Of a stretch of 64,000 nucleotides of DNA, positions 3,861-39,648 are shown piece after piece. The notes beneath the pieces are model-generated. The model saw only the letters and a program-made list of their open reading frames with translations. It did no database searches and was not told the DNA's origin. This DNA comes from Malacoraja senta. Its lineage: Eukaryota. Numbering within the stretch: the stretch's first letter is position 1; each line of letters starts with the position of its first letter. A program made the position numbers and the translations under genes. Location of the stretch: NCBI GenBank assembly GCA_038087875.1, contig CM075988.1:7876001-7940000 (forward strand). Direction: 5' to 3'.

Positions 3861-4822
3861 AATTTCACAATCTTTTACAAGTGACCCAAATAGCAGCAGT
3901 GCTAATTACAACTGATCGACTGACCAAAGCAGATGAAATTCAAATTTCTAGACATGCCTTCTTTTGAAATTGCCATATTTTGACCTTTATCGAAACAGAG
4001 ACGTTTTTGAATATACATCACATCGTTTTATTATAAATTATATCACAGATATCTTTCAGCATTTCAGAAATAATTGCTACATTTGTTAACAGGATAATGG
4101 ATGCTTCTATTAAAATAATTTTGCCCAGGGGAAACCATGTCCAAAGGAGGAATGGTGTAAAAATGATCAAACACTGTCTGAATAATGAATGTTTGTGTGA
4201 ATTCGTGCCTCCTTCTGCACTGCAATATCACAGATTACAAACAAAATGTTAGCCCAATCTTCCCGTACTGCTTCAGTCACCCACCCATCTTTCAGTCAAG
4301 TTCTGTCTCCTAAACTAAGTTGCAGAATGGCTCTTAAACCTCTGTCCAAGATGGTGCCAAAGTGTGCTGGTTTCAGAAGTGGATCTGCTAGCATGCATTA
4401 CAAATCGCTCCCCTGTTTTAAATCTTTATTTCAACAGCAGCATTTCTTACACTAACTATGCTCTTCTAAAATCTACTCCACCGTATTGGACTTTATCTTG
4501 CACCAAACATTAAACCCTTGTTTCTGTACACTTTGGGCAGCTTGATTGTAATCATGTATTGTCTTTTCGCTGACGCTAACACCCAACAAAAAAGCTCTTC
4601 ACTGTACCTCGGTACATGTGACAATAACAAACTAAGGCTGCAGTCCCACCACTGAGCCAAAGTTTGCAACTGGGTAACATGATTCAGATGCCAGCATAGC
4701 CAGAGGCACCATTCATTTATTTAAAGACCATTTGTTGCTCCTTTGCTCTGCTGAGGTGAGCTCTTAACTCGGAGGCAGCGTTGGAAACACTGCCACAATG
4801 GAAGACTTGCATCAACAGTGTT

Positions 4823-4876
4823 GGTGTGGGAGATTGCAACCTTCACGTGGTCCGCCCTGTTTCGACGAATGCAATC
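4823..4876 (+). ncRNA. Minimal HDV-like (CPEB3-type) self-cleaving ribozyme
   Basis: P1 GGTGTGG/CCGCCCT with G1-U wobble and one mismatch. P2 GATTGCA/TGCAATC perfect. P3 ACC/GGT. L3 TTCACGT. J1/4 GT. P4 reduced to about TTCG. J4/2 CGAA with the catalytic C at 4866. Confidence 0.85.
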
Positions 4877-4960
4877 AACCTGACGTGCACAATCAAATAA
4901 GATCAAATAGAACAAGTTGTCCTACAACTTTAGGCTGTGCAAGCCATACGCAAGAAGAAG
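4823..4960 (+). mobile_element. About 140-bp non-autonomous retroposon headed by an HDV-like ribozyme, with a CATACGC(AAG)n tail (Ingi/Vingi-like)
   Basis: Starts at ribozyme G1 and ends in CCATACGCAAGAAGAAG. Flanks share GTGTT (4818-4822 and 4967-4971), a possibly eroded TSD. Confidence 0.75.
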
Positions 4961-5149
4961 ATGAATGTGTTTTCAAAGTAAATACACAAAGTCAGGAACG
5001 GGATCTAATCCCAGGGTGTACTTTAAAACCCACAGGTCAATATTTAATCTAAACACTGCTCTCCCACAGCACCATTCCCTGCTTCTGATATTAAAGAAAG
5101 TAAAGTAAAGGTTTTAGTGGGGTTATTTAATGCATCATTGACTGAGATT

Positions 5150-5780
5150 CATAGTTATACAGCACAAAATCAGACCCTTTGGTCTAAAGCATCCACACCT
5201 AACAAGTTGCCAATTGATGCTGTTCCCATTTGCATGCATTATAACAGCCTCTACCACTTTCTTTGGCACCTCGTTCCATATACCCACCATCCTCTATTTA
5301 AAAATACCCCTTTAAATAGGTCCGTTCTCACTTTAAACCTATGCCCTCTATTTTTCAAAGGTTTCAAGGGTCTTTTATTGTCACGTGTACCAATTAAGGT
5401 ACAGTGATATGCAAATTTTAGAATGGTCTGTCCTGGGAAAAATTCTGGAACCATTCACCATCATGATTTTATAAAAGTCTATAAAATCACCCTTCCATCT
5501 CCTGGGTTACCAGGTGAAAACCTCCAACCTAATCCAGTCTCCATATAACAAGCCCTCCAGTTCCAGCAACATCCTTGTGAATCTTCTTTTAACTCTTTCC
5601 AGAGTAGTGACATCCTTCCTATAGTACGAGACTAGACCTTCACACAACAGTCCAAATGTGGTCTCACCAATACTTTGTAACATGGCGTCCCAACTCTTCT
5701 ACTCAATGCCCTGACCGTTGAAGGTAAGCAAGCCACATGTCTTCTTCACCACCCTGTCCACCTGTGTGGTCACTTTCAAA
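5150..5780 (-). repeat. Degraded CR1 LINE 3' fragment
   Basis: Minus-strand RGHRFKVR...F..RGWWVY motif and CR1 3' UTR remnants. Confidence 0.6.
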
Positions 5781-10023: not shown

Positions 10024-11204
10024 AGTCAAGTCAAGTCAAGTCAAGTCAAGTGAGTTTATTGTCATGTGTCCCTGGTAGGACAATGAAATTCTTGCTTTGC
10101 TTGAGCACAACAGAACATAGTAGGCATTTACTACAAGGCATTCTATAAATATATACACAATGGTCAATATACTGATAAAGTGCAAATAACAGTATTGGCT
10201 AGTAAAGTTCAGTGTTATGTCCGAGCCAGGTTTAATAGCCTGATGGCTGTGGGGAAGTAGCTATTCCTGAACCTGGTCGTTGCAGTCTTCAGGCTCCTGT
10301 ACCTTCTACCTGAAGGTAGTAGGGAGATGAGTGTGTGGCCAGGATGGTGTGGGTCCTTGATGATGCTGCCAGCCTTTTTGAGGCAGCGACTGTGGTAGAT
10401 CCCCTCGATGGAAGGGAGGTCAGAGCCGATGATGGACTGGGCAGTGTTTACTACTTTTTGTAGTCTTTTCCTCTCCAGGGCACTCAAGTTGCCGAACCAA
10501 GCCACGATGCAACCGGTCAGCATGCTCTCTACTGTGCACCTGTAGAAGTTAGAGAGAGTCCTCCTTGACAAACCGACTCTCCGTAATCTTCTCAGGAAGT
10601 AGAGGCGCTGATGTGCTTTCTTAATAATGGCATCATTGTTCTCGGACCAGGAAAGATCTTCAGAGATGTGCACGCCCAGGAATTTGAAGCTCTTGACCCT
10701 TTCAACCATCGACCCGTTGATATAAACGGGACTGTGGGTCCCCATCCTACTCCTTCCAAAGTCCACAATCAGTTCCTTGGTTTTGCTGGTGTTGAGGGCC
10801 AGGTTGTTGTGCTGGCACCATATGGACAGTTGCTCGATCTCTCTTCTATACTCTGACTCATCCCCATCAGTGATACGTCCCACAACAGTGGTGTCATCAG
10901 CGAACTTGATGATGGAGTTCGCACTATGTCCGGCTACGCAGTCATGAGTATAGAGTGAGTACAGCAGGGGGCTGAGCACGCAGCCTTGAGGTGCTCCCGT
11001 GCTAATTGTTATCGAGTCTGAAACATTTCCACCAATACGAACAGACTGTGGTCTGAGAGTGAGGAAGTCGAGGATCCAACTGCAGAGGGATGCGCAGAGA
11101 CCCAGTTCTGCGAGTTTGGTAACCAGCTTGGAGGGGATGATTGTGTTAAATGCCGAGCTGTAATCGATGAATAACAGCCTGACATATGAGTTTTTGTTGT
11201 CCAA
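10024..11204 (-). mobile_element. 5'-truncated Rex1/Babar-type LINE with open RT C-terminal half
   Basis: About 330 uninterrupted codons from LDNKNSYVRLLFIDYSSAFNTI through GAPQGCVLSPLLYSLYTHDC and KFADD to the stop at 10215. (CTTGA)n tail at 10024-10050. GGGTA on both flanks. Confidence 0.9.
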
Positions 11205-11209
11205 GGGTA

Positions 11210-11720
11210 GAAAGGAATTGTAGATGTTGGTTTGTACAAAAAATAGACACAAAGTGTTGGAGTAATTCAGTGGGTCAGGCAGCATCTCTGGAGAAAAGGG
11301 ATGGATGACATTTCGGGTGGGAACTCTACAGCCCAGAAACAGGCCATTTGGCCAATAATGTCCATGGTGAACATAATGCAAAGTTAAACTAATCTCCTCT
11401 GCCTGCACATGATCCATATCCCTCCATTCCCTAACATTCCCAAAAACCTTTAGGCAGAAGAGGCAGAAATCATTCATGGTAAAAGTTCTGTATAAACAAA
11501 GCACTGCAGATACTGGTTTACAACAAAAAGGGCTCAAAGTGCAGGAGTAACTCAGCAAGTCGAGCATCATCCCTGGAGAACATGGACAGGTGACATTCTG
11601 GGTCGGTTCCCTTCCGAGACTCCAATCTAAAGAAGGATCCCGGACCGAAATGTCACCCATCCATGTTCTCCAGGGATGCTGCCTGACCAGCTGAGTTATT
11701 CTAACACTTTGTGTCTTTTT
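11210..11720. repeat. Penelope-derived inverted repeats plus a CR1 3' fragment
   Basis: Arms as at 8505. Hammerhead-like CTAAAGAAGGATCCCGGACCGAAATGTC at about 11627-11654. Confidence 0.6.
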
Positions 11721-14947: not shown

Positions 14948-15261
14948 TGATAACTCAATGGGCCAGGTAGCATCTCTGGAGAAAACAAATAGGTGATGTT
15001 TCGGGTTGGAACCCATCTTCAGACTGAAAGTTGGGAGGAGTGGGGTGGAGTGGGGACTGGAGGTAACAAAAGGCCAGACCAGCACAGGGCTGGCAATAAA
15101 TATTCAAGGAAGGGTGAAGCCCATAATGGTCCATTGTTGGCTGGGGAAGAGGTGATTACGAAGGGAAACATGGATGTGAACAGTGGAACTGGTAGGACGA
15201 CTAGGTTCTAGGTTGGGGGGGGGGGGGGGTGAAGAGGGCCTGCAGGGGCTACTTGAAATGA

Positions 15262-18200
15262 CCCACAAATATTGAATGAAAGATCATGTCAGGAATATCT
15301 TATTAAACAGATGCAAACATTCTTCGAGGCAAATGACAACCCTGACACATCTGTCTCTCTTATTTGGGAGACATTTAAAGCGTTTGTCCGAGGCGCATTA
15401 ATTTCTGCCCAAGTATTTTATAACAAAGAGAACCGGATTAAACAACAAACACTGGAAAGGGAAATAAAGCAACTAGATATAGAAAATGCGAGAATGCCAT
15501 CTAAGTTAAAACATAACAAAATTGCTGTACTGAAATATAAACTAAACAAAATGTATTCAGAACAAGTAATAAAACTTTATCAACATACTAAACAATTACA
15601 TTTTGAGTTTGGAGACAAACCACAAAAACTATTAGCACGTCAGCTACAAAAAATGGAGGGGGAGAAAATAATTCATAAAATTAGAGCAGATACAGGAGAA
15701 TTATTAAAATTACCCAAGGATATAAACGAGAGATTTCTCCAATACTATCATAATCTTTACTCAACTAAAACTGTAGTACAACCAGAAGGAATAGCAGATT
15801 TTTTACAAAAATGTAATTTAAAAGGTTTAGATTCAAAAGATAGAGGATTATTAGAAGCGGAGATTACGATAAAAGATATTGAAGAGTCTATTGGATCTTT
15901 AAAAAATGGTAAAGCAGTAGGACCAGATGGTTTAGGCTCGGAATTCTATAAAAAAAATTATGATTTGCTTTCTCCACGTTTACAAAAGCTGTATGAACAT
16001 ATTTATACTCAACAGAAACTTCCAGATACCTTAAATGAATCTATAATAACACTTATTCCTAAAGCTGATAAGGATCCGGAAGATCCAGGATCATATAGAG
16101 CAATTGCACTTTTAAATACAGATCAGAAAATACTAACAAAAATGTTAGCGCACAGATTAAGTACAGTGATGAATAAACTAATACACCCTGACCAAACAGG
16201 TTTTATTCAGAAGCGGTATTCATATTACAATCTAAGAAGATTATTTAATATAATATATTCAAAGAGAAATATTAATGAAGATTTAGCAATAATCTCACTC
16301 GATGCTGAAAAAGCTTTTGATCAGGTGGAATGGCCCTATTTATTTTCGGTGATGGAAAAATTGCAGCTGGGCGAGAAATTTTGTGCATGGATAAAACTGT
16401 TATATACAAACCCTACGGCTAGAATATTAACAAACCAACGGTTATCATCTAAATTTAACCTATCTAGAGGGTGTAGACAAGGATGCCCGTTGTCTCCATT
16501 ATTATTTGCGCATGTTATAGAGCCACTCGCAGAAAGAGTCAGGACCCATCCGGAAATATATGGGTATAACACAAAGGACACAGTGAATAAAATTTCTTTA
16601 TACGCAGATGATGTATTAATTTACATTACAAAACCAGAAATTAGTATTCCAAATTTATTAAAGCTAATAACCCAATTTGGTTCACTCTCAGGATACAGAA
16701 TAAATTGGAATAAAAGTGAAATTATGCCAATAAGGGAACATAATAAACATATAATACAACAATTTCCATTTAAAATAGTAAATGAAAAATTTAAATACCT
16801 AGGCATTTATGTTACTAAGATATATACATCATTATTTAAAGCAAACTTTCCCCCATTACTGAATAAACTACATAAGAATATTCAGTATTGGAAAACACTT
16901 CCTATTTCAATGGTTGGCAAAATTAATGCCATAAAAATGATTTTCTTACCGCAAATATTATACCTTTTTCAAACAATTCCGATATATTTGTCAAAAACAT
17001 TTTTAAAAAGTTAGATTCCATTGTCAGTGACTTTATCTGGGATTATAAGAATCATAGGATAAGCAAAAAACATCTGTGCAAATCAAAAATAAATGGAGGT
17101 TTGGTTTTACCAAACGTTTTGTTTTATTTTTGGGCAGTTAACATTAAAAATATGAATTTTTGGTTGGAAGAAATAGATCAACAACCAGATTGGTTAAAAA
17201 TGGAAAAGGAAGATTGCTCACCTTTTGAAATCGGCTCGATACTATTTGCTACTTCTAAATTAAATTAAAAAAATTATAGGGAAAATCCTATAATATATAG
17301 TACTATGCGAATTTGGAAACAATTAAAAAAGACATTAAAACTAGATAATTTATCACTTTTTCTTCCAATTGCGAATAACCCTTTGTTTAAGCCCTCATGG
17401 TTGGACAAAGGTTTCACACAATGGAAAAACTATGGAATTAAAAAGATGGGACACCTTTATAAGGAAGGCACTTTTCTTTCATTTCAGGAGTTGCAACAGA
17501 TTTATGGACTTCAAGTAAATGATTTTTTCAGATATCTCCAACTTAGAGATTACGTAAAAGCAAATACTCGAAATTTTATAATTAGAAATTCAGAAATTTT
17601 TGACGACTGTTGGAATAAACATCCTAATACAGAAAAACTAATATCTTATATATATAATATTTTATTAGACAGCGATATCCCATTGACGGACTTACACAGA
17701 CAAACTTGGGAAAAAGAACTAAATCAAATAATAACGAAAGATACTTGGGAAGAAAGTTTACAACACATACATCAATGTTCATTAAATGCCAGACATTCTC
17801 TAATACAATTCAAAGTAATACATAGGTTACATTATTCTAAAACAAAATTAAATAAAATCTTCCCACATATCTCACCAATATGTGATAAATGTCAACATTT
17901 AGAAGCTAACTTATCTCATATGTTTGCAAATTGCATAAAAATTAAAAATTTCTGGGTAAATATTTTCACAATAATATCTAAAGTGACTAGCATTCAATTG
18001 GACCCGGATCCAAAATTGATAATACTTGGAACATTAGAACTAAATCAAACATTTACAACAACTCAAAGAAACTTTATTGATTATAGTATAATAACTGGGA
18101 AAAAAATAATTCTAAAATTTTGGAAAGGCCCTATAACCCCCACAATTAAAATGTGGATTATAGAAATGACGGAGACCTTACACTTGGAAAGAATTAGACT

Positions 18201-18712
18201 TGTCCTGTTGGACAAACAGGAACTATTCGTCGGAACATGGTCTCCCTTTATTGACTATTTAAAGGGTCAGAATGGTTCAGCACAGGAACCTGACTAACAC
18301 CCGTGCCAAGGAATAGATGAAAGGTTATACTCTGAAATGTACGAATATATCTCGAATGAAGTTTTTTATCGTAGTAAATTATTCCATTCTTCTTTATTAT
18401 CTTTTTTTTTTTTTTTTTGTTTTTTTGTTTTGTTTTGTTTTTTTTGTTTTTGTTTTTTGTTTTGTTTTAGGTTGGTTTTTTTGGGGGGTTTTTTCTTGTT
18501 TCTTCTCTTTTTTCTCTTTCTTTCTTTCTTTATTTCATCTATATCTTTTTAGTTCTATTTAGTTTTAAAAAAAAGAAAAAAGTATTGGAGACATTGTAAT
18601 AATAATGGACGATATTTGTAATTTAAAAATGTAAGACTGGTATCGATTTTAATATGATATGTATCTACCTCCAATAAAAAATATCTTAAAAAAAAAATTT
18701 TTTTTTTAAAAA
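15262..18712 (+). mobile_element. 5'-truncated L1/Tx1-like LINE (ORF2 RT and C-terminal Zn region, T-rich 3' UTR)
   Basis: ORF2 motifs GKAVGPDG, SYRAIALLNTDQK, LDAEKAFD, RQGCPLSP, YADD and CDKC...H...C. AATAAA at 18673. TSD GAAATGA at 15255-15261 and 18713-18719. Confidence 0.92.
15272..18297 (+). pseudogene. L1-like ORF2 (reverse transcriptase), frameshifted near 17005 with a further stop near 17266
   Basis: The 580-aa and 330-aa ORFs are consecutive parts of one ORF2. The endonuclease domain was lost by 5' truncation. Confidence 0.88.
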
Positions 18713-29272: not shown

Positions 29273-29289
29273 GGAACGATAGAAGGGGT

Positions 29290-29666
29290 CCCAACAAATA
29301 CAAGGGAATGATGTATTCCTAAGGAACTATTTACTGGCAGTATCTCGTTCTATTACAGAATTAAGAACCAAGGGGCTGCTGGCACAGAGTCCCCATCTCG
29401 ACTTTCCAATCCATTCTGTGAAAGCGGGGGACTGGGATCTTGTAACATCATGGAAGGAAGAAAAGCTGCAACCTAAGTGGACTGGACCCTACCTGGTGTT
29501 ACTAATCACCGAGACAGCAGTACGAACAAAAGAAAAAGGGTGGACACACGCAAGCCGATTTAAGGGTCCTGTGGAGGCCCCACCAAACAATATCAGCCCG
29601 TGGACTGTGCGCAAAGGAGAGGAACCATTGACTTTAATATTTAACAAGAACCCGCGGGAAAAATGA
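29290..29666 (+). pseudogene. Class I retroviral integrase C-terminus (GPY/F region), frame open
   Basis: FLRNYLLAVSRSITELRTKGLLAQSPHLDFPIHSVKAGDWDLVTSWKEEKLQPKWTGPYLVLLITETAVRTKEKGWTHASRFK. Confidence 0.85.
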
Positions 29667-30811
29667 AGATTTCGTGTTGGTGGGTCGTGTGTTGGGTGGT
29701 TACCCAACTATGTAAGCATACAGAGTGTTCAAATGCAGGAAAGTGGAAGGATGTGCAGATAGAACAGGGAGAATGAGCCTAAGGATTTGAAGATAATGAT
29801 AGTAGCAGGAGAAACAGAATTAAGGCAATTATATGAGATGGGAATACCTACAGGAGGGAAGGGAGCCAACACCTGGCTTGCCTGGATGATGTACACGGCC
29901 AGGAGTATGCAACACACCAATTGCTACGCCTGCGCCGGAGCTAAGCCTCAGCTGGTTCCAGAACCATTTCCCTTGAATTGGGATAGGACACCTGGGGCTA
30001 TGTCATGTATACTACAGCTATTCACGAATCCCATCCTACCAAAGGATGCGACCTGCCAGAGTTATCATTACCTATTCCCGGCTAGCAACAACAATACAAA
30101 GGGCCGAAGGACAGACACTTCAACACACACATATATATAGATGCGATAGGGGTGCCAAGAGGGGTACCCGATGAATTCAAAGCCAGAAACCAGATAGCTG
30201 CGGGCTTTGAGTCCATACTCTTCTGGTGGTCCACACTTAATACAAATGTGGACTGGATCAACTACCTATACTACAATCAACAACGCTTTATAAATTACAC
30301 TCGAGATGCGGTTGAAGGATTAGCGGAACAACTGACAGATACCAGCCTAATGGCCTGGCAAAATCGCATGGCCTTAGACATGCTACTGGCTGAGAAGGGA
30401 GGGGTGTGTGTAATGTTTGGGGAACAATGTTGCACCTTCATCCCCAACAACACTGCTCCTGATGGGTCAGTATCGAGAGCCCTAGCAGGTCTCACCTCCC
30501 TGTCTATCGAATTGGCCGAGAACTCCGGAGTAGACACCTCCTGGACCGGGTTTCTAGACTCCTGGTTTGGGAAATGGAAGCACATCTTTACCTCAGCCCT
30601 AACATCAGTGGTAGTTATGATGGGGTTGCTGTGCATATTTGGATGTTGTATCATTCCCTGCGTACGGGGGTTGTCTCAGCGATTGATAGAGACAGCCCTG
30701 ACCAAGAATGACGCCGCCATGATGGCCTTTAAAACACAGTATGACCAGCGAGAGGAAGATAAAGAGGCGAAGATTCTGCTGCTAGCATTAGAGAAGGGGC
30801 AGATAGTCTAA
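29663..30811 (+). pseudogene. env: Gamma-type env: signal peptide, partial SU (CYAC) and intact TM; internally deleted and frameshifted
   Basis: MKISCWWVVCWVV signal peptide and SU CxxC motif CYAC. TM reads YIDAIGVPRGVPDEFKARNQIAAGFES..., with ISD WQNRMALDMLLAEKGGVC, CX6CC (CVMFGEQCC), a hydrophobic anchor and tail. No furin RxKR site seen. Confidence 0.9.
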
Positions 30812-30847
30812 ATCAAAGATTGCAGTAGCAAAAGTAAAAGTGTGGAT

Positions 30848-31362
30848 TGTGAGAAAGGGGTTAATAGGTATAAGTTGATTTAGACAAGAACCCTTTGTAT
30901 AGTAGGGAGTATAGTAGGGAGGATAGGGGGAGTAAAGGACAAGTACAAATGGTGACTTTTCAAGGATGAGAACAGAGAAGATAAGGAGACCATCCATTCT
31001 GGAATTAGGGTAAGGGTCATGAGAAACACTCTGTGCGCTTGCGTAATGAGATAAATGAATATTGCAAACACACCCATCATGACAAGATGTCTCATTTAAA
31101 TGTACATGCGATGTATGATGTGGGAGGCACCAGGGGCGGTACCTGTAGAATGTGCACCTCAGTGCTCTGATTTGACAAGAGCCCGAAGGGGAGGAATAAA
31201 TGTAACAAATGTAAAATTATGTGAATAAGAGAGAGATGAATTCCATCTCTCGGTGTGTCTTGACAGGGGAGACACCCAACTCTGCAGACTTGCTAATAAA
31301 TAAACTTGTTTCTCTACATTCTCTACGCATCGTGAGTGTTCTTTCACAACTTGCGCCTGACA
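30848..31362 (+). repeat. ERV 3' LTR
   Basis: Near-identical to 25085-25599. Preceded by the purine-rich AAAAGTAAAAGTGTGGAT. Confidence 0.95.
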
Positions 31363-31367
31363 GGCGA

Positions 31368-34108
31368 GAAGGTTGACATTTACGGACAAGCAGCGGTACA
31401 GGTACAGCTCGAACCTCACAGGAAGCCAGAAACGCTGACCCTAGTGGTAGTAAAGAAAGGTGCATGCCTAATGGGAAAAGACTCGTTGAGGAAGTACCCT
31501 GGATTGCTGTCAAATCTAGCCAGCTAGAACACACTAGACCCAAGCCTAAGTACATCGAGTAGTATACAGTTTGCAAGAGGCCATGAGCTCAGTACTCAAC
31601 AAGCACGCCAAGCTGTTTGATAACAGCACCCATGAAGGGATACCAAGCCAAAGGGTATCCACAAGACGAAAACAGTGGAGCAAAGTTTTACAAAGCAGCT
31701 CCTGTTTCATATGCTGCTAGAAAGCTGATTGATGCCGCATTGGATGACGTGCTGCAGGATGGCATTATCAAGCCGGTGAAGACAGCAGATTTCACATGCC
31801 CGATCATAGCTGTTACAAAACCAAATGGGAGCATGAGTCTGTGGCAATTACAAGCTCACAGCAAATAAGGTGCTGAAAGTGGAACAGTATCCACTTCCCA
31901 CTTTGGAGGATCTCCTGCAGGAAATCTCCAGAGGAGAAAAGTTCTCTAAATTAGTCCTCTCACATGCCAATTATCAGATAGAGTTAGGCCATGAAGCTCG
32001 GAAGTTCACCACAATAAATACGCACAAGAGTCTCTTCGAGTATACCAGGTTACCCTTTGGGATATCCAGCGCAACAGCCACGTTCCAGAGAACAATGGAG
32101 AGCCTACTAGCGGATATTCCCATGTGCAAGCTGTATATCTGGATGATATCATCATCAGCGGGAAGACTGACGAAGCGGTCCTGTCAAGACTAGAAACCAG
32201 TGGGTTACGTCTGAAGAAGGAGAAGTGTGCACTGATGCAAGAGTCAGTCGACTATCTCGGATATTGACTGAACAAGATTGGTCTTCGTCCTCTTCCAGAC
32301 AAAGTTGATGCGGTGCGGGAAGCAAAGCGGCCTGTGAATCAAAGCCAACTCCAGGCATACCTCGGCTTACTTGGGTATTACAGGATGTTTATACCTAACC
32401 TGTCACAGGAGATTGCACCGTTGACTCTAATGCTGAAGGATGAGTACAGATCAGCAGATTCAAAGAGTGGGAGAAGCAGCGAGCCTGATCCCATGTTCAA
32501 ATGGGGAAAGGAGCAAGAGCAGGCATTCCAGAGATCCAAGCGTCTCCTGCAGAATGATAGTGTTCTGACGCATTACGATCCAGCGAAAACAATTCTGCTT
32601 CAAACTGATGCAAGCCCCTATGGCTTAGGTGCTGTGATAAGCCATGTTGAATCAGATGGACAAGAATACCCAATAGCGTTTGCCTCACGCACTCTCAAGC
32701 CCAGCGAAGTGAACTACGCACAATATGAAAAGGAGGGTTTATCCATAATCTTCAGACTGAAGAAGTTCCACAAGTAGTTACATGGGAGGTCTTTCACCAT
32801 TGTGACTGATCACAAGCCTCTGATGGGATTATTGGGAGACCACAAGCCTGCCAGCCCAATGGCCTTTGCTCGCATAGCAAGATGGCATATGATCCTGTCT
32901 GCCTACAGTTATAAGATTGTCCATCGAGAAGGCAAGAAACACCAGAATGCAGATGCGTTGTCGCACTTGTCGATCCACGAAGAGGACTCTTCATGGAATC
33001 ACCCTGAGCTCGCGGAGCTTGATGAAGCACCAGAGGCACGCATCAACATGCTCACCGATCTGGAAACATGCCCTGTTGATGCACAGGAAGTGAAGAGAGC
33101 TACCAAATCCATCCATGGGAGTTTCCTGAGAGACCGTGGAGTAGGATTCACTGTGATTATGCCAGCCTTGATGAGGAGAATTTGCTGATTGTGGTCGATG
33201 CTCACAGCAAATGGATTGAAGCCATTCGGGTGAAACACGCAAAAGCAGCGGCAACAGTGATTGCCCTGGGACCGTTGTTTGCATCTCATGGGTTACCGGG
33301 AATGCTGGTCACATATAATGGTACGCAGTTTGTGTCTGAAAAATTTGCCAGGTTCCTCAGGAGCAACAACATCTGCCACATTCAAACATCACCCAAACAC
33401 CCGCCCAGCAACGGACTAGCTGAAAGAGGTCTACAAATGGTGAAAGCAGGTGTGAAGAAAGGAAAAGGATCCAACCTGGAAATAAAGATCCAGAAGTTCT
33501 TGCTGACTTACCGAGTCACACCTCAAGGAACGACTGGAAAGTCACTCTGTGAACTGATGTTCAGACGAAAGATCCGCACTAAACTTAACAGTCTGCGACC
33601 CAATCTAAGCCAATCTGTCCGAAGGAAGCAAGCTTCAATGAAACAGGCAGCAGATCGAGATAGCAAGGAATGAGTCTTTGAGGTGAATGATCATGTCATG
33701 GTCAAGAACTTCACATCAGGTCCTACTTGGCTTTACGGAATGATAGCAGAAGTCATCAGTGAAGTCATGTACAACGTAAAGTTGAGTGAGGTAAGAGTCG
33801 TGCGTCGTCATGTAGATCAAATGAGAGCATACTTGCCTAAAGGTGATGAGCACACCGAGTTCCAGCAAAGAGAAGTGGTTCAACCAAGCGAGGAGCCAAT
33901 GATGGTTCTGCCTACTCCACCCGCATTGGATCCTGAAAGAACTTCAGAGAGTGAGTCCACAGTGATAACACAACATCACCACCAGAGCCTGATATCTCAG
34001 ATAACATGCAAAGTCCAACAGACTTTGTCTAATAGGATGTCTAATCGCATGTCTAATAGGACTAAAAGAACACCTAAAAGATTTGAGGATTTTGTTCTTT
34101 ATAAGTGA
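31368..34108 (+). pseudogene. Gypsy pol remainder (protease C-terminus, RT, RNase H, integrase, GPY-like end)
   Basis: YPLPTLEDL, FTTINTHK..FEYTRLPFGISSA, (Y)LDDII, LQTDASPYGLGAVISH, TDHKPL, LIVVDAHSKWIE, NGLAER. Multiple frameshifts; the integrase Zn-finger appears deleted near 33110. Confidence 0.9.
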
Positions 34109-35617: not shown

Positions 35618-38411
35618 TTGTGTCTCAATGCAAGGAGCATTCGTAATAAGGTGGATGAGTTGAATGTGCAGATAGCTATTAATGACTATGATATAGTTGG
35701 GATCACGGAGACATGGCTCCAGGGTAACCAAGGCTGGGAGCTGAACATCGAGGGATATTCAATATTCAGGATAGACAGAAAGGGAAAGGAGGTGGGGTTG
35801 CGTTGCTGTTTAGAGAGCAGATTAACGCAATAGAAAGGAAGGACATTAGCTTGGAGGATGTGGAATCGATATGGGTAGAGCTGCGAAACACTAAGGGGCA
35901 GAAAACACTAGTGGGAGTTGTGTACAGGCCACCTAACAGTAGTAGTGGAGTTGGGGATGGCATCAAACAGGAAATTAGAAATGCGTGCAACAAAGGTAAA
36001 ACAGTTATAATGGGTGACTTCAATCTGCATATAGATTGGGTGAATCAAATTGGCAAGGGTGCTGAGGAAGAGGATTTCTTGGAATGTATGCGGGAAAGTT
36101 TTCTAAACCAACATGTAGAGGAACCAACGAGAGAGCAGGCTATTCTGGATTGGGTATTGAGTAATGAGGAAGGGTTAGTTAGCAGTCTTGTTGTGCGTGG
36201 CCCCTTGGGCAAGTGTGACCATAATATGGTTGAGTTCTTCATTAGGATGGAGAGTGACATTGTTAATTCAGAAACAAGGGTCCTGAACTTAAAGAAACGT
36301 AACTTTGAGGGTATGAGAAGTGAATTGGCCAAGATAGACTGGCAATTGATTCATAATGGGTTGACGGTAGATATGCAATGGAAGGCATTTAAAGACTGCA
36401 TGGATGAACTACAACAATTGTTCATCCCAGTTTGGCAAAAAAATAAATCAGGGAAGGTAGTGCATCCATGGATAACAAGGGAAATCAGGGATAGTATCAA
36501 AACAAAAGATGAAGCGTACAAATTAGCGAGAAAAAGCAGCCTACCAGAGGACTGGGAGAAATTCAGAGTCCAGCAGAGGAGGACAAAGGGCTTAATTAGG
36601 AAAGGGAAAATAGATTATGAAAGAAAACTGGCAGGGAACATAAAAACTGACTGCAAAAGCTTTTATAGATATGTGAAGAGAAAAAGATTAGTTAAAACAA
36701 ATGTAAGTCCCTTGCAGTCAGAAACAGGTGAATTGATCATGGGGAACAAGGACATGGCAGACCAATTGAATAACTACTTTGGTTCTGTCTTCACTAAGGA
36801 AGACATAAATAATCTGCCGGAAATAGCAGGGGACCGGGGGTCAAATGAGATGGAGGAACTGAGTGAAATCCAGGTTAGCCGGGAAGTGGTGTTAGGTAAA
36901 TTGAATGGATTAAAGGCCGATAAATCCCCAGGGCCAGATAGGCTGCATCCCAGAGTACTTAAGGAAGTAGCCCCAGAAATAGTGGATGCATTAGTGATAA
37001 TTTTTCAAAACTCTTTAGATTCTGGAGTAGTTCCTGAGGATTGGAGGGTAGCAAACGTAACCCCACTTTTTAAAAAGGGAGGGAGAGAGAAAACGGGGAA
37101 TTACAGACCAGTTAGTCTAACGTCGGTAGTGGGGAAACTGCTAGAATCAGTTATTAAAGATGGGATAGCAGCACATTTGGAAAGTGGTGAAATCATTGGA
37201 CAAAGTCGGCATGGATTTATGAAAGGTAAATCATGTCTGACGAATCTTATAGAATTTTTCGAGGATGTAACTAGTAGAGTGGATAAGGGAAAACCAGTGG
37301 ATGTGTTATATCTGGACTTTCAGAAGGCTTTCGAAAAGGTCCCACATAAGAGTTTGTATACAAACTTAAAGCACACGGTATTGATGGTTCAGTATTGATG
37401 TGGATAGAGAACTGGCTGGCAGACAGGAAGCAAAGAGTAGGAGTATACGGGTCCTTTTCACAATGGCAGGCAGTGACTAGTGGGGTACCGCAAGACTCAG
37501 TGCTGGGACCCCAGCTATTTACGATTTATATTAATGATTTGGACGAGGGAATTGAATGCAACATCTCCAAGTTTGCGGATGACACGAAGCTGGGGGGCAG
37601 TATTAGCTGTGAGGAGGATGCTCGGAGGCGGCAAGGTGACTTGGATAGGCTGGGTGAGTGGGCAAATGCATGGCAGATGCAGTATAATGTGGATAAATGT
37701 GAGGTTATCCACTTTGGTGGCAAAAGCAGGAAAGTAGACTATTATCTGAATGGTGGCCGATTAGGAAAAGGGGAGATGCAACGAGACCTGGGTGTCATGG
37801 TACGCCAGTCATTAAAAGTAGGCATGCAGGTGCAGCAGGCAGTGAAGAAGGCGAATGGTATGTTAGCATTCATAGCAAAAGGATTTGAGTATAGGAGCAG
37901 GGAGGTTCTACTGCAGTTGTACAGGGTCTTGGTGAGACCACACCTGGAGTATTGCGTACAGTTTTGGTCTCCTAATCTGAGGAAAGACATTCTTGCCATA
38001 GAGGGAGTACAGAGAAGGTTCACCAGACTGATTCCTGGGATGTCAGGACTTTCATATGAAGAAAGACTGGATAGACTCGGTTTGTACTCGCTAGAATTTA
38101 GAAGATTGAGGGGGGATCTTATAGAAACGTACAAAATTCTTAAGGGGTTGGACAGGCTAGATGCAGGAAGATTGTTCCCGATGTTGGGGAAGTCCAGAAC
38201 AAGGGGTCACAGTTTAAGGATAAGGGGGAAATCTTTTAAGACCGAGATGAGGAAAACATTTTTCACACAGAGAGTGGTGAATCTCTGGAATTCTCTGCCA
38301 CAGAAGGTAGTTGAGGCCAGTTCATTGGCTATATTTAAGAGGGAGTTAGATGTGGCCCTTGTGGCTAAAGGGATCAGGGGGCATGGAGAGAAAGCAGGTA
38401 CAGGATACTGA
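35618..38411 (+). pseudogene. CR1 ORF2: APE endonuclease plus reverse transcriptase, two frameshifts (about 35780 and 37350)
   Basis: CLNARSI, GITETWL, VYRPP, MGDFN, CDHN, NYRPVSLTS, LDFQKAF, SGVPQ, KFADD...GEKAGTGY*. Confidence 0.92.
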
Positions 38412-39108: not shown

Positions 39109-39175
39109 GGGGCTCATGTTGTCGACCTCCCCGTGGTGAGCTCTGTCAACTGACCTCAGTCAGGTGAACGACAAC
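39109..39175 (+). ncRNA. HDV-like ribozyme with the catalytic C changed to T (predicted inactive copy)
   Basis: P1 GGGGCTC/GAGCTCT with G1-U wobble. P2 GTTGTCG/CGACAAC. P3 ACC/GGT. L3 TCCCCGT. J1/4 GT. P4 CTGAC/GTCAG. J4/2 is TGAA instead of CGAA (T39165). Confidence 0.85.
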
Positions 39176-39313
39176 AAACAGAGACAGCAGTAGCGCCGCA
39201 GCTTGGCGCCAACCCAGAGCATGCGCCCGTTTTAGGGCGGGCACCTACGGATGTCGAAATGGATGGCATCACCCTTCTGCAGACTTCTACTGCCTCAAAC
39301 GCAAGAAGAAGAA
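39109..39313 (+). mobile_element. About 205-bp non-autonomous retroposon headed by an HDV-like ribozyme, with an ACGC(AAG)n tail (Ingi/Vingi-like)
   Basis: Starts at ribozyme G1 and ends in CAAACGCAAGAAGAAGAAG. Imperfect TSD TACTAGAG (39101-39108) / TACTGGAG (39316-39323). Confidence 0.78.
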
Positions 39314-39324
39314 GCTACTGGAGA

Positions 39325-39648
39325 AGGCGGCATGGTAGAGTTGCTGCCTTACAGCGCTTGCAGCACCAGAGACCCGGGTTCGATCCCGACTATGGGTACT
39401 GTCTGTATGTAGTTTGTACATTCTCCCCGTGACCTGCGTGGGTTTTCTCCGAGATCTTCGGTTTCCTCCCACACTCCAAAGACGTACAGGTATGTTGGTT
39501 AATTGACTTGCCGTATGTGTAAAAAACAATTGTCCCTAGTGTGTGTAGGATAGTGTTAATGTTCGGGGATCGCTGGTCGGCGTGGACCCGGTGGGCCGAA
39601 GGGCCTGTTTCCACGCTGTATCTCTAAACTAAGCCTAACTAAACTAAA
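39325..39648 (+). mobile_element. HE1-like V-SINE
   Basis: tRNA-like head with B-box GGTTCGATCC, V-domain, CR1-like tail and (CTAAA)n. Confidence 0.88.

Follow-up and report, generated by a model that had tools for sequence, protein, structure and literature searches.

The subject of this report is a 138-nucleotide (nt) element at positions 4823–4960 of a 64,000-nt stretch of contig CM075988.1 (assembly GCA_038087875.1); this whole stretch is called the window below. The element, named family A, is one copy of a young, abundant, multicopy non-autonomous retroposon that starts at a fixed guanine (G1). Its first 54 nt are predicted to adopt a nested double pseudoknot of the hepatitis delta virus (HDV)/CPEB3 ribozyme type in which the P4 hairpin is missing. 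The same plan underlies seven families (A–G) whose helix sequences differ, and covariation among them points to conservation of the fold under selection. The explanation favoured here, which the sequences make probable, is that a P4-less ribozyme of 54 nt releases family A from read-through transcripts and that Vingi-like long interspersed nuclear elements (LINEs) then copy it in trans.

Copies and insertion sites of family A

The genome searched was that from which the window comes (1.94 Gb). A first look with the 138-nt query returned 715 candidates, and the 40 that were scored are all 96–100% identical, almost all over the full length. For the modal 35-nt head, G or T being allowed at position 3, there are 1,024 exact matches in the genome against none for its reversed control. 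With a less strict core pattern, from which the modal 3' strand of helix P1 (P1') is excluded, there are 1,721, against 3 for its control; these belong mostly to an older subfamily with CCACCCT as P1', in which a U5–A pair takes the place of U5·G, a change that preserves pairing. Both counts bear out the first-pass annotation of the window, which had expected multiple copies. It had also expected a consensus P1 strand of GGGGCGG or GGGGTGG, and the modal P1 of family A is in fact a perfect GGGGTGG/CCGCCCT helix: among 100 matches listed of the 1,024, 99 carry GGGGTGG and one carries GGTGTGG. By this count the window copy, which reads GGTGTGG (G3U), is a rare variant; its lineage amounts to about 1 in 100 genome-wide, and to 8 of 44 copies in the biased sample described next.

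Insertion sites were read in 60 loci, 30 from the similarity search with the 138-nt query and 30 from an unbiased search for the tail pattern. A recognisable head and tail were present in 44; the loci dropped were one without a tail and 15 in which the head anchor is absent, through 5' truncation or mutation or because they are not family A. Three pairs of loci (L027/28, L029/30 and L087/88) are segmental duplicates and not independent. When at least 9 bp with at most one mismatch are demanded, target-site duplications are found in 36 of the 44 copies, with a length of 10–13 bp and a mode of 11. The duplication directly adjoins G1 in 28 of these 36; in the other eight it stops 1–5 nt short, and the extra bases, often G, may be untemplated 5' additions. 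Among 28 tail-anchored copies judged by eye, 21 are full length and seven 5'-truncated.

The upstream flanks of 30 fetched family-A loci are mutually unrelated. The element is neither single-copy nor heterogeneous at its 5' end, two of the outcomes that the first-pass annotation had regarded as fatal to its proposal. As expected there, the 5' ends accumulate at G1 and target-site duplications adjoin it, both here (28 of 36) and in family B (18 of 22, see below). The window copy's own duplication has decayed: about 9 of 12 positions, with one gap, can be matched by eye, and none is detected by the script. At one other copy (L089; C1:217266587–217269607, minus strand), the element is preceded at its 5' junction by a run of about 20 G.

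The predicted ribozyme fold

Read base for base, 4823–4876 agrees with the fold that the annotation had drawn by hand, with a G1–U wobble in P1, a 7-bp P2, a 3-bp P3, the loop L3 and the joining segment J4/2 in 54 nt (Table 1). All helices of the nested double pseudoknot can be drawn except P4, and the claimed reduction of P4 is apparent as a 5-nt linker, TTCGA, in its place. P1 of the window copy spans seven positions, including the G4823·T4858 wobble, a U·G pair at 4827/4854 and one mismatch, T4825 × C4856. A 20-nt core pattern has one match in the window, with none expected. Nested minimum-free-energy folding of the 54-mer gives the P2 hairpin alone (−9.1 kcal/mol); the method is blind to pseudoknots, and this result is not taken as evidence.

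The remainder of the element is likewise as first described. The tail CATACGC(AAG)3 is present, and the claimed lack of tRNA-like A and B boxes holds: ARAGORN finds no tRNA gene in 4600–5200, and A-box and B-box motifs are absent from the element within two mismatches. Family A thus has the size of a short interspersed nuclear element (SINE) with no RNA polymerase III (Pol III) head, and is better filed as a non-autonomous LINE-dependent element than as a canonical SINE.

Table 1. Features of the family-A and family-B copies in the window. Positions are those of the window; ORF, open reading frame; UTR, untranslated region.
Feature	Position	Strand	Basis or remark
P1 5' strand, GGTGTGG (family mode GGGGTGG)	4823..4829	+	G4823 is the first base of the element; cleavage predicted 5' of G4823
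J1/2, GA	4830–4831	+	Sequence reading
P2 5' strand, GATTGCA	4832..4838	+	Perfect 7 bp with 4870–4876; 6 of 8 pairs covary
P3, ACC (4839–4841)/GGT (4849–4851), 3 bp, around L3, TTCACGT (4842–4848)	4839..4851	+	Covariation
P1.1, predicted pair of C4844 (L3) with free G4859		+	Sequence reading
P1 3' strand, CCGCCCT	4852..4858	+	Covariation of P1 across families
GT (P1.1 side) and 5-nt linker TTCGA (4861–4865) at the position of P4	4859..4865	+	Linker of family F also 5 nt, TTCCA
J4/2, CGAA	4866..4869	+	C4866 is the predicted catalytic cytosine
P2 3' strand, TGCAATC, end of fold	4870..4876	+	
Family-A body, 68 nt	4877..4944	+	No ORF, no Pol III boxes
3' tail, CATACGC (4945–4951) then (AAG)3 (4952–4960)	4945..4960	+	Presumed recognition/priming site for a LINE reverse transcriptase
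Family-B copy	39109..39314	+	Ribozyme with P4, 5' UTR, ORF start and last ~20 nt of LINE-B

Seven families on one plan

Families C and D were obtained with core patterns that exclude A and B (78 matches, control 0). A core pattern in which P3 is GCG/CGC (59 matches, control 0) gave families E, F and G; P3 is ACC/GGT in families A–D. Families C and G are the heads of a second and a third LINE, respectively; family C has GGGAGAG/CTCTCCT as P1 and TGTCGGCA/TGCCGATA as P2. Family D is short and SINE-like (P1 GGGGATC/GATCCCT, P2 TGACAGAA/TTCTGTCA), and family E consists of internally deleted LINE derivatives. Family F, also SINE-like, is about 165 nt long, is flanked by target-site duplications, and carries a P4-less head of 53 nt with CTAA as J4/2. 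Families A and F differ in P1, P2 and P3 and have linkers of equal length (5 nt), where the other families have 13–40 nt. The P4-less form is thus a recurrent one, found in two independent families, A (54 nt) and F (53 nt).

In 11 sequences from families A–D, 93.2% of cells pair, compared with 29–47% when the 3' partners are slid by 1–3 columns, and both sides change in 11 of 20 pairs (4 of 7 in P1 and 6 of 8 in P2). The score for covariation, 0.538 as against at most 0.127, is reached by none of 500 shuffles; these figures are not probabilities, since the sequences are related and few, and the slid controls, which lie far lower, are the fairer comparison. In 15 sequences from families A–G, P1, P3 and P1.1 are 96.4% paired, against 35–55% when slid, and two of the three P3 pairs change on both sides. 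This larger alignment served for P1, P3 and P1.1 only, since MAFFT placed the 3' strands of E and F wrongly; P2 was counted on the 11-sequence alignment and in a structure-aware table, where 14 of the 15 sequences have 6–8 contiguous P2 pairs, the exception being D_L096 with one mismatch in the P2 3' strand. Covariation, which the first-pass annotation had proposed to check, is accordingly seen in P1, P2 and P3. P1.1 (C22–G37) is kept in 13 of 15 sequences and shows no covarying change, so that this pairing is neither supported nor contradicted.

The unpaired core is also kept. L3 reads T-Y-C-N-C-G-T in all seven families. For six of them, the copy chosen as representative has C-N-R-A as J4/2; in family D, J4/2 is CCAA in one copy (L096, by eye) and ACAA in the other. 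In an A3 subfamily of family A the linker is TTCAA, and four loci (L066, L068, L070 and L073) read TTCAA-CTAA instead of TTCGA-CGAA. Because CTAA occurs both there and in the P4-less family F, the second base of J4/2 appears to be free, with the C and the AA kept.

A chance fold in a fragment of some larger repeat, rather than in a unit of its own, would make these regularities accidental. Descriptor scans do give occasional false positives: a strict home-made descriptor, run over the window and the LINE-B loci L091 and L086, returned three weak AT-rich matches, which were rejected as noise. It recovered neither the family-A nor the family-B copy of the window, because both carry mutations. 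The target-site duplications, however, bracket exactly the 138-nt unit, its upstream flanks are unrelated, and the pairing covaries across seven families; the probability left to a chance fold is negligible, and it is regarded as ruled out.

Family B and the LINE partners

The connection to LINEs is most direct in family B, of which the window holds one copy, found by a relaxed tail search within the window (Table 1). Its J4/2 cytosine is mutated to T (39165) and its P1' reads GAGCTCT, a C>T change; it is a dead copy. Genome-wide there are at least 848 candidates, the 40 that were scored being 92–100% identical. The family-B head has P1 GGGGCTC/GAGCCCT, P2 TGTTGTCG/CGACAACA, P3 ACC/GGT, L3 TCCCCGT, a P4 hairpin and CGAA as J4/2, and the modal ribozyme aligns with the whole of Rfam model RF02682 from G1 onwards (32.8 bits, E=0.0029), below the cut-off of 44. 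Of 27 copies read, 22 start with GGGGCTC; 22 have target-site duplications, with a mode of 11 bp, and 18 of these adjoin G1. The shared mode of 11 bp makes family A resemble a LINE derivative and argues for a common integration machinery of families A and B. The family-B tail is followed directly, at 39315–39400 (+), by another kind of repeat, in which GGTTCGATCCCG resembles the B box of a tRNA. This repeat has the look of a tRNA-derived SINE, or it may be the site into which family B was inserted.

The tail pattern has 248 matches genome-wide against none in the control. They are mostly family-A copies with a CpG change, and they also yielded the 3' end of a LINE, LINE-B, at locus L086: it has an ORF with the reverse transcriptase (RT) thumb, a Cys/His motif at the C terminus and, as its tail, TTCAAACGC(AAG)n. 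The L086 ORF has 4,026 first-look candidates in the genome. At the 5' end of another LINE-B copy (L091), a family-B ribozyme is followed by about 110 nt of UTR and an ORF that starts with MDGITLLQ and encodes an apurinic/apyrimidinic endonuclease (APE; PF14529/PF03372), with RVT_1 downstream; Pfam thus detects both APE and RVT_1 in LINE-B. Family B is the first ~185 nt of LINE-B joined to its last ~20 nt, an internally deleted, bipartite structure like that of the SIDEs discussed below. Within L086 (700–1250), the segment that separates the RT thumb from the Cys/His motif contains an internal expansion of a tandem repeat of about 100 nt.

Two further LINEs of this kind were found. LINE-B, LINE-C and LINE-G are all about 3.2 kb long, with a single APE+RT ORF, no RNase H hit, a C-terminal Cys/His motif, an (AAG)n tail and a full HDV-type ribozyme head; identities in the APE region are 48% (B–C), 37% (G–B) and 39% (G–C). 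LINE-C was traced from G1 to the tail in three copies and measures about 3.18 kb, as in copy L101. Its ORF matches APE (PF14529, PF03372) and RVT_1, and no RNase H domain was detected in five ORF pieces. Its tail is TTCATTCGC(AAG)n (L098–L100), and its target-site duplications leave 2–5 extra bases at the 5' junction. One full-length copy (L094:1–45, C1119) has a tandem duplication of its initial 16 nt, GGGAGAGATGTCGGCA, at this junction, which suggests that the template slipped or jumped as reverse transcription ended.

Vingi-1 is described as a compact element that has one ORF and an APE and lacks RNase H (PMC13708176), and the LINE partners share this build. The Vingi 5' ends of Repbase, as printed in PMC5786205 (supplement), are by eye a close match to the head of LINE-G. 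LINE-B, LINE-C and LINE-G may accordingly belong to the Vingi clade. The annotation had named an Ingi/Vingi-like LINE as the mobilising partner; of this, the presence in the same genome of a LINE class with (AAG)n tails and ribozyme heads stands, and the Vingi-like label has indirect support in the head of LINE-G (60–61 bits with the CPEB3 model, below), the clade assignment itself being putative. Searches in the ESM Atlas returned generic APE clusters from fungi and arthropods and resolved no clade. A protein homologue search gave 295 hits at E≤1e-10, and the only named one among the 120 listed is an icefish protein with 45% identity. According to PMC5786205, bipartite non-autonomous derivatives are known from the RTE, Ingi, Vingi and R2 clades only, and PMC13708176 describes the engineering of Vingi as a gene-insertion tool in which the native 5' UTR is retained.

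Proposed mode of propagation

In the explanation favoured here, family-A copies inside host transcription units would be transcribed passively, and the 5' fold would cleave the transcript just 5' of G1. Because of this proposed cleavage, the template RNA would start at G1 without a promoter of its own. A compact LINE of about 3.2 kb with a single APE+RT ORF, for which LINE-B, LINE-C and LINE-G are candidates, would recognise the short ...CGC(AAG)n 3' end, nick the target, reverse-transcribe up to G1 and leave target-site duplications of about 11 bp. Published work offers precedents: in HDV-like ribozymes the cut lies 5' of nucleotide 1 of P1, and L3 and J4/2 form the core (PMC4908430); such ribozymes process LINE 5' ends (PMC5786205); and minimal HDV-like forms without P4 exist, of which the theta ribozymes are reported to self-cleave in vitro (preprint 10.1101/2023.06.13.544163). 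Genomic copies that start at G1 fit cleavage at this site, for which self-cleavage is predicted. Recognition of ..CGC(AAG)n in trans by a LINE enzyme, and an active LINE as the driver, are presumed.

A number of observations weigh against this scheme. The G3U lineage, with a U3×C34 mismatch in P1, still gave several copies with target-site duplications at G1, and family F lacks a U partner for G1. Family A has no HDV-like Rfam match at E≤10, and the surroundings in the window gave only chance-level matches to mir-51, DdR1 and MIR319; at gathering thresholds, Rfam has no hit in the whole window. On the side of the LINEs, every copy read is broken by frameshifts or insertions. The autonomous LINE ending in CATACGC(AAG)n that the first-pass annotation had expected did not turn up among the 248 tail-pattern matches, the LINE tails seen being CAAACGC and CATTCGC. 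Nor was a LINE headed by the family-A ribozyme found among 100 listed of 166 matches, although one that continues with AACC would escape this pattern; by eye, about 96 of the 100 continue into the family-A body and four into unrelated, mutually different sequence. What makes family A resemble LINE-B and LINE-C is confined to how its head is built and to its last ~10 nt (..A-CGC(AAG)n).

The RNA data also belong here. Sequencing runs from eight organisms contain part of the stretch, and no RNA run is listed for it in the index. The data come from one poly(A) run of raw reads (X24, from organism H, possibly a related species), of which about 6% was read, from a fragmented library. There are 641 reads on the element, 637 of them only partly; 95% run into flanks that are unlike one another, in both orientations, at a depth of about 200 with the first mate on the plus strand and about 100–160 with the first mate on the minus strand. 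Because the reads continue into unlike flanks, the element appears to be transcribed mostly as a passenger, in both orientations. No position in X24 shows a pile of molecule starts or ends, G1 included. In the listed rows of the loose-end table, in which the strands are not separated, reads crossing the 5' boundary number 99+110+32 and those crossing the 3' boundary 45+75+52, so that the 5' boundary is crossed by no fewer. X24 thus offers no support for efficient cleavage and is weak evidence against it, weak because the run is poly(A)-selected, fragmented, about 6% read, with strands unseparated, and perhaps from a related species.

Several of these points would be expected if the fold were conserved and the P4-less version in family A were not, or barely, catalytic. 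It would then be a structured 5' module or a relic, with roles such as exonuclease protection or the handling of RT or of the 5' junction, and G1 would be inherited from a few source loci. The many X24 reads over the 5' boundary without a pile at G1, the missing Rfam match and the spread of the G3U sublineage in spite of its P1 mismatch all agree with this, and a double-pseudoknot fold can give R2-derived templates a cap-like protection (PMC13708176). Pure structure, however, needs neither the J4/2 C-N-R-A, nor the L3 cytosine, nor the position of G1, and these are kept across families that have no helix sequence in common. The P4-less form is present in two independent families, genome matches of 61–65 nt pass the cut-off of the CPEB3 model, the form with a perfect P1 outnumbers the mismatched one by about 99 to 1, and P4-less theta ribozymes are reported to undergo self-scission in vitro (preprint 10.1101/2023.06.13.544163). 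A non-catalytic module is therefore considered unlikely.

Precise 5' ends alone cannot distinguish cleavage from the start of transcription, and an internal promoter in the first ~50 nt, either similar to Pr77 or in the form of a cryptic initiator for Pol III or Pol II, could place the start at G1, with the likeness to a ribozyme being secondary. There is a precedent in L1Tc/NARTc, whose first 77 nt are both promoter and ribozyme (PMC3383444). What the seven families conserve in P1, P2 and P3 is pairing and not primary sequence, as would suit a structure in RNA better than a promoter in DNA; moreover, there is no tRNA-like structure and no A or B box, there is no pile of read starts at G1, and 95% of the X24 reads extend into the flanks. 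The promoter explanation is hence quite improbable, and excision by a P4-less ribozyme, followed by copying in trans, is retained as the probable origin of family-A copies.

Relation to the CPEB3 ribozyme

By its sequence motifs, the predicted fold belongs to the CPEB3 type. The same double-pseudoknot plan is found in the mammalian CPEB3 ribozyme (Rfam model RF00622, cut-off 35 bits), and family A shares with the consensus of this model L3 UUCACGU and J4/2 CGAA. The CPEB3 ribozyme is described as lying in one intron of the mammalian Cpeb3 gene and as having a P4, whereas the ribozymes considered here are multicopy, stand at the 5' ends of retroposons and, in families A and F, lack P4; family A itself does not match RF00622. 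The LINE-G heads, however, score 59.7 and 61.3 bits (E about 1e-15), well above the cut-off. The other families fall below it: the P4-less family F with 33.2 and 33.8 bits (E about 1e-6), family D with 26.3 bits (E=3.4e-4) and family E with 19.8–23.1 bits (E 0.0034–0.041). The alignments place CGAA, CTAA or CCAA on the CGAA of the model. In a genome-wide search, 59 of about 100,000 rough candidates were scored with RF00622; 51 reached E≤0.001 and 39 exceeded the cut-off. The passing matches include some of 61–65 nt, the length expected of P4-less copies of the F type.

The extreme 5' ends of Vingi-2_Gav, Vingi-4_Crp and Vingi-1_BF (supplement of PMC5786205) contain TTCACGT as L3, ..CCCTGT.. 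and CGAA, and thus share the L3 and J4/2 motifs of family A; P3 of families A–D is ACC/GGT, not GCG/CGC. By eye, Repbase Vingi 5' ends from gharial, crocodile, amphioxus and sea urchin are nearly the same as the RF00622 consensus. No paper linking Vingi 5' ends to the CPEB3 consensus was found in the literature searched, and a search for Vingi and ribozyme, judged by title and abstract, gave none that links both. The list of ribozyme-bearing clades given in PMC5786205 (2018) does not include Vingi, a Vingi trace, X12_LINE, is listed for the human genome in PMC5753468, and a 2021 study presents the CPEB3 ribozyme as unknown outside mammals and without outgroups.

A wider hypothesis, for and against which the evidence seems evenly balanced, is that the mammalian CPEB3 ribozyme is a domesticated 5' end of a Vingi-type LINE. 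The present genome would then keep the living source LINEs and their offspring, among which selection would twice have pared the ribozyme down to a P4-less core of about 54 nt, in families A and F, and this core would still set the 5' ends of thousands of insertions. If this is true, the CPEB3 ribozyme gains its missing outgroups, and a defined role in a eukaryote is found for the first time for minimal HDV-like ribozymes. LINE heads pass the CPEB3 model, and a non-mammalian genome, which the repeat content suggests (a non-mammalian vertebrate), would open the origin of this ribozyme to a direct test.

Comparison with other ribozyme-bearing elements

LINEs of R2, RTE, L1Tc/Ingi and a few further clades are known to carry HDV-like ribozymes at their 5' ends, and the tails of the short elements NARTc, RIME and SIDER are A-rich or poly(A). 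An HDV-like ribozyme that processes a LINE or a short LINE derivative is therefore of a known kind. NARTc, RIME and SIDER are short and non-autonomous, keep the HDV-like ribozyme of the LINE 5' end and are mobilised in trans (PMC3383444, PMC4035085). They differ from family A in that they are protist elements whose 77-nt head doubles as a promoter, whereas the family-A body is not evidently a deletion product of a LINE and its ribozyme lacks P4.

A direct analogue of family B is provided by the R2 SIDEs of Drosophila, which combine a 5' self-cleaving ribozyme with a LINE 3' end (PMC3414825). R2 and its SIDEs are inserted site-specifically in 28S ribosomal DNA by a restriction-like endonuclease, in contrast to the dispersed families here, with their target-site duplications of about 11 bp and APE-type LINEs. 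Vingi LINEs, represented together with their bipartite derivatives by Vingi-2_Gav, the Vingi-1_EE derivatives and SINE2-1_ACar/AMi, are compact, with a single ORF, APE and no RNase H, like the LINE partners in this genome; the derivatives are described as consisting of LINE 5' and 3' parts only (PMC5786205).

With regard to size, the closest parallels are the metagenomic drz-Mtgn ribozymes and the phage theta ribozymes, in which P4 is absent and about 50–55 nt are enough for the fold (preprint 10.1101/2023.06.13.544163). These come from metagenomes and gut phages, the theta ribozymes flanking tRNAs, and the origin and function of drz-Mtgn are stated as unknown in the preprint; here, in contrast, the setting is a large eukaryotic genome, and the position at a retroposon 5' end suggests a function. 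As far as the literature searches reach, a 54-nt P4-less ribozyme that heads a SINE-sized element with thousands of copies, alongside ribozymes on Vingi-like LINEs that pass the CPEB3 model, is new, although parts of this may be known to specialists. Family A is a SINE-sized retroposon that consists of little beyond a P4-less ribozyme and a LINE tail, amplified to thousands of copies. If the proposed mode of propagation is true, it amounts to a natural experiment in which a minimal catalytic core is enough to define a 5' end in vivo.

Other content of the window

All ORFs of the window are transposon-like; it is almost wholly derived from transposons, and no host gene was recognised in it. A CR1/L2-like LINE and a second, L1/Tx1-like LINE are represented by long APE+RT ORFs that are nearly open; together with further RT fragments, these lie at 35728–38411 (+), 15257–18297 (+) and 10215–11720 (−). 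A stretch at 29283–34108 (+) resembles Gypsy elements or endogenous retroviruses and contains pol ORFs (RT/RNase H/integrase-like) as well as an env-like ORF.

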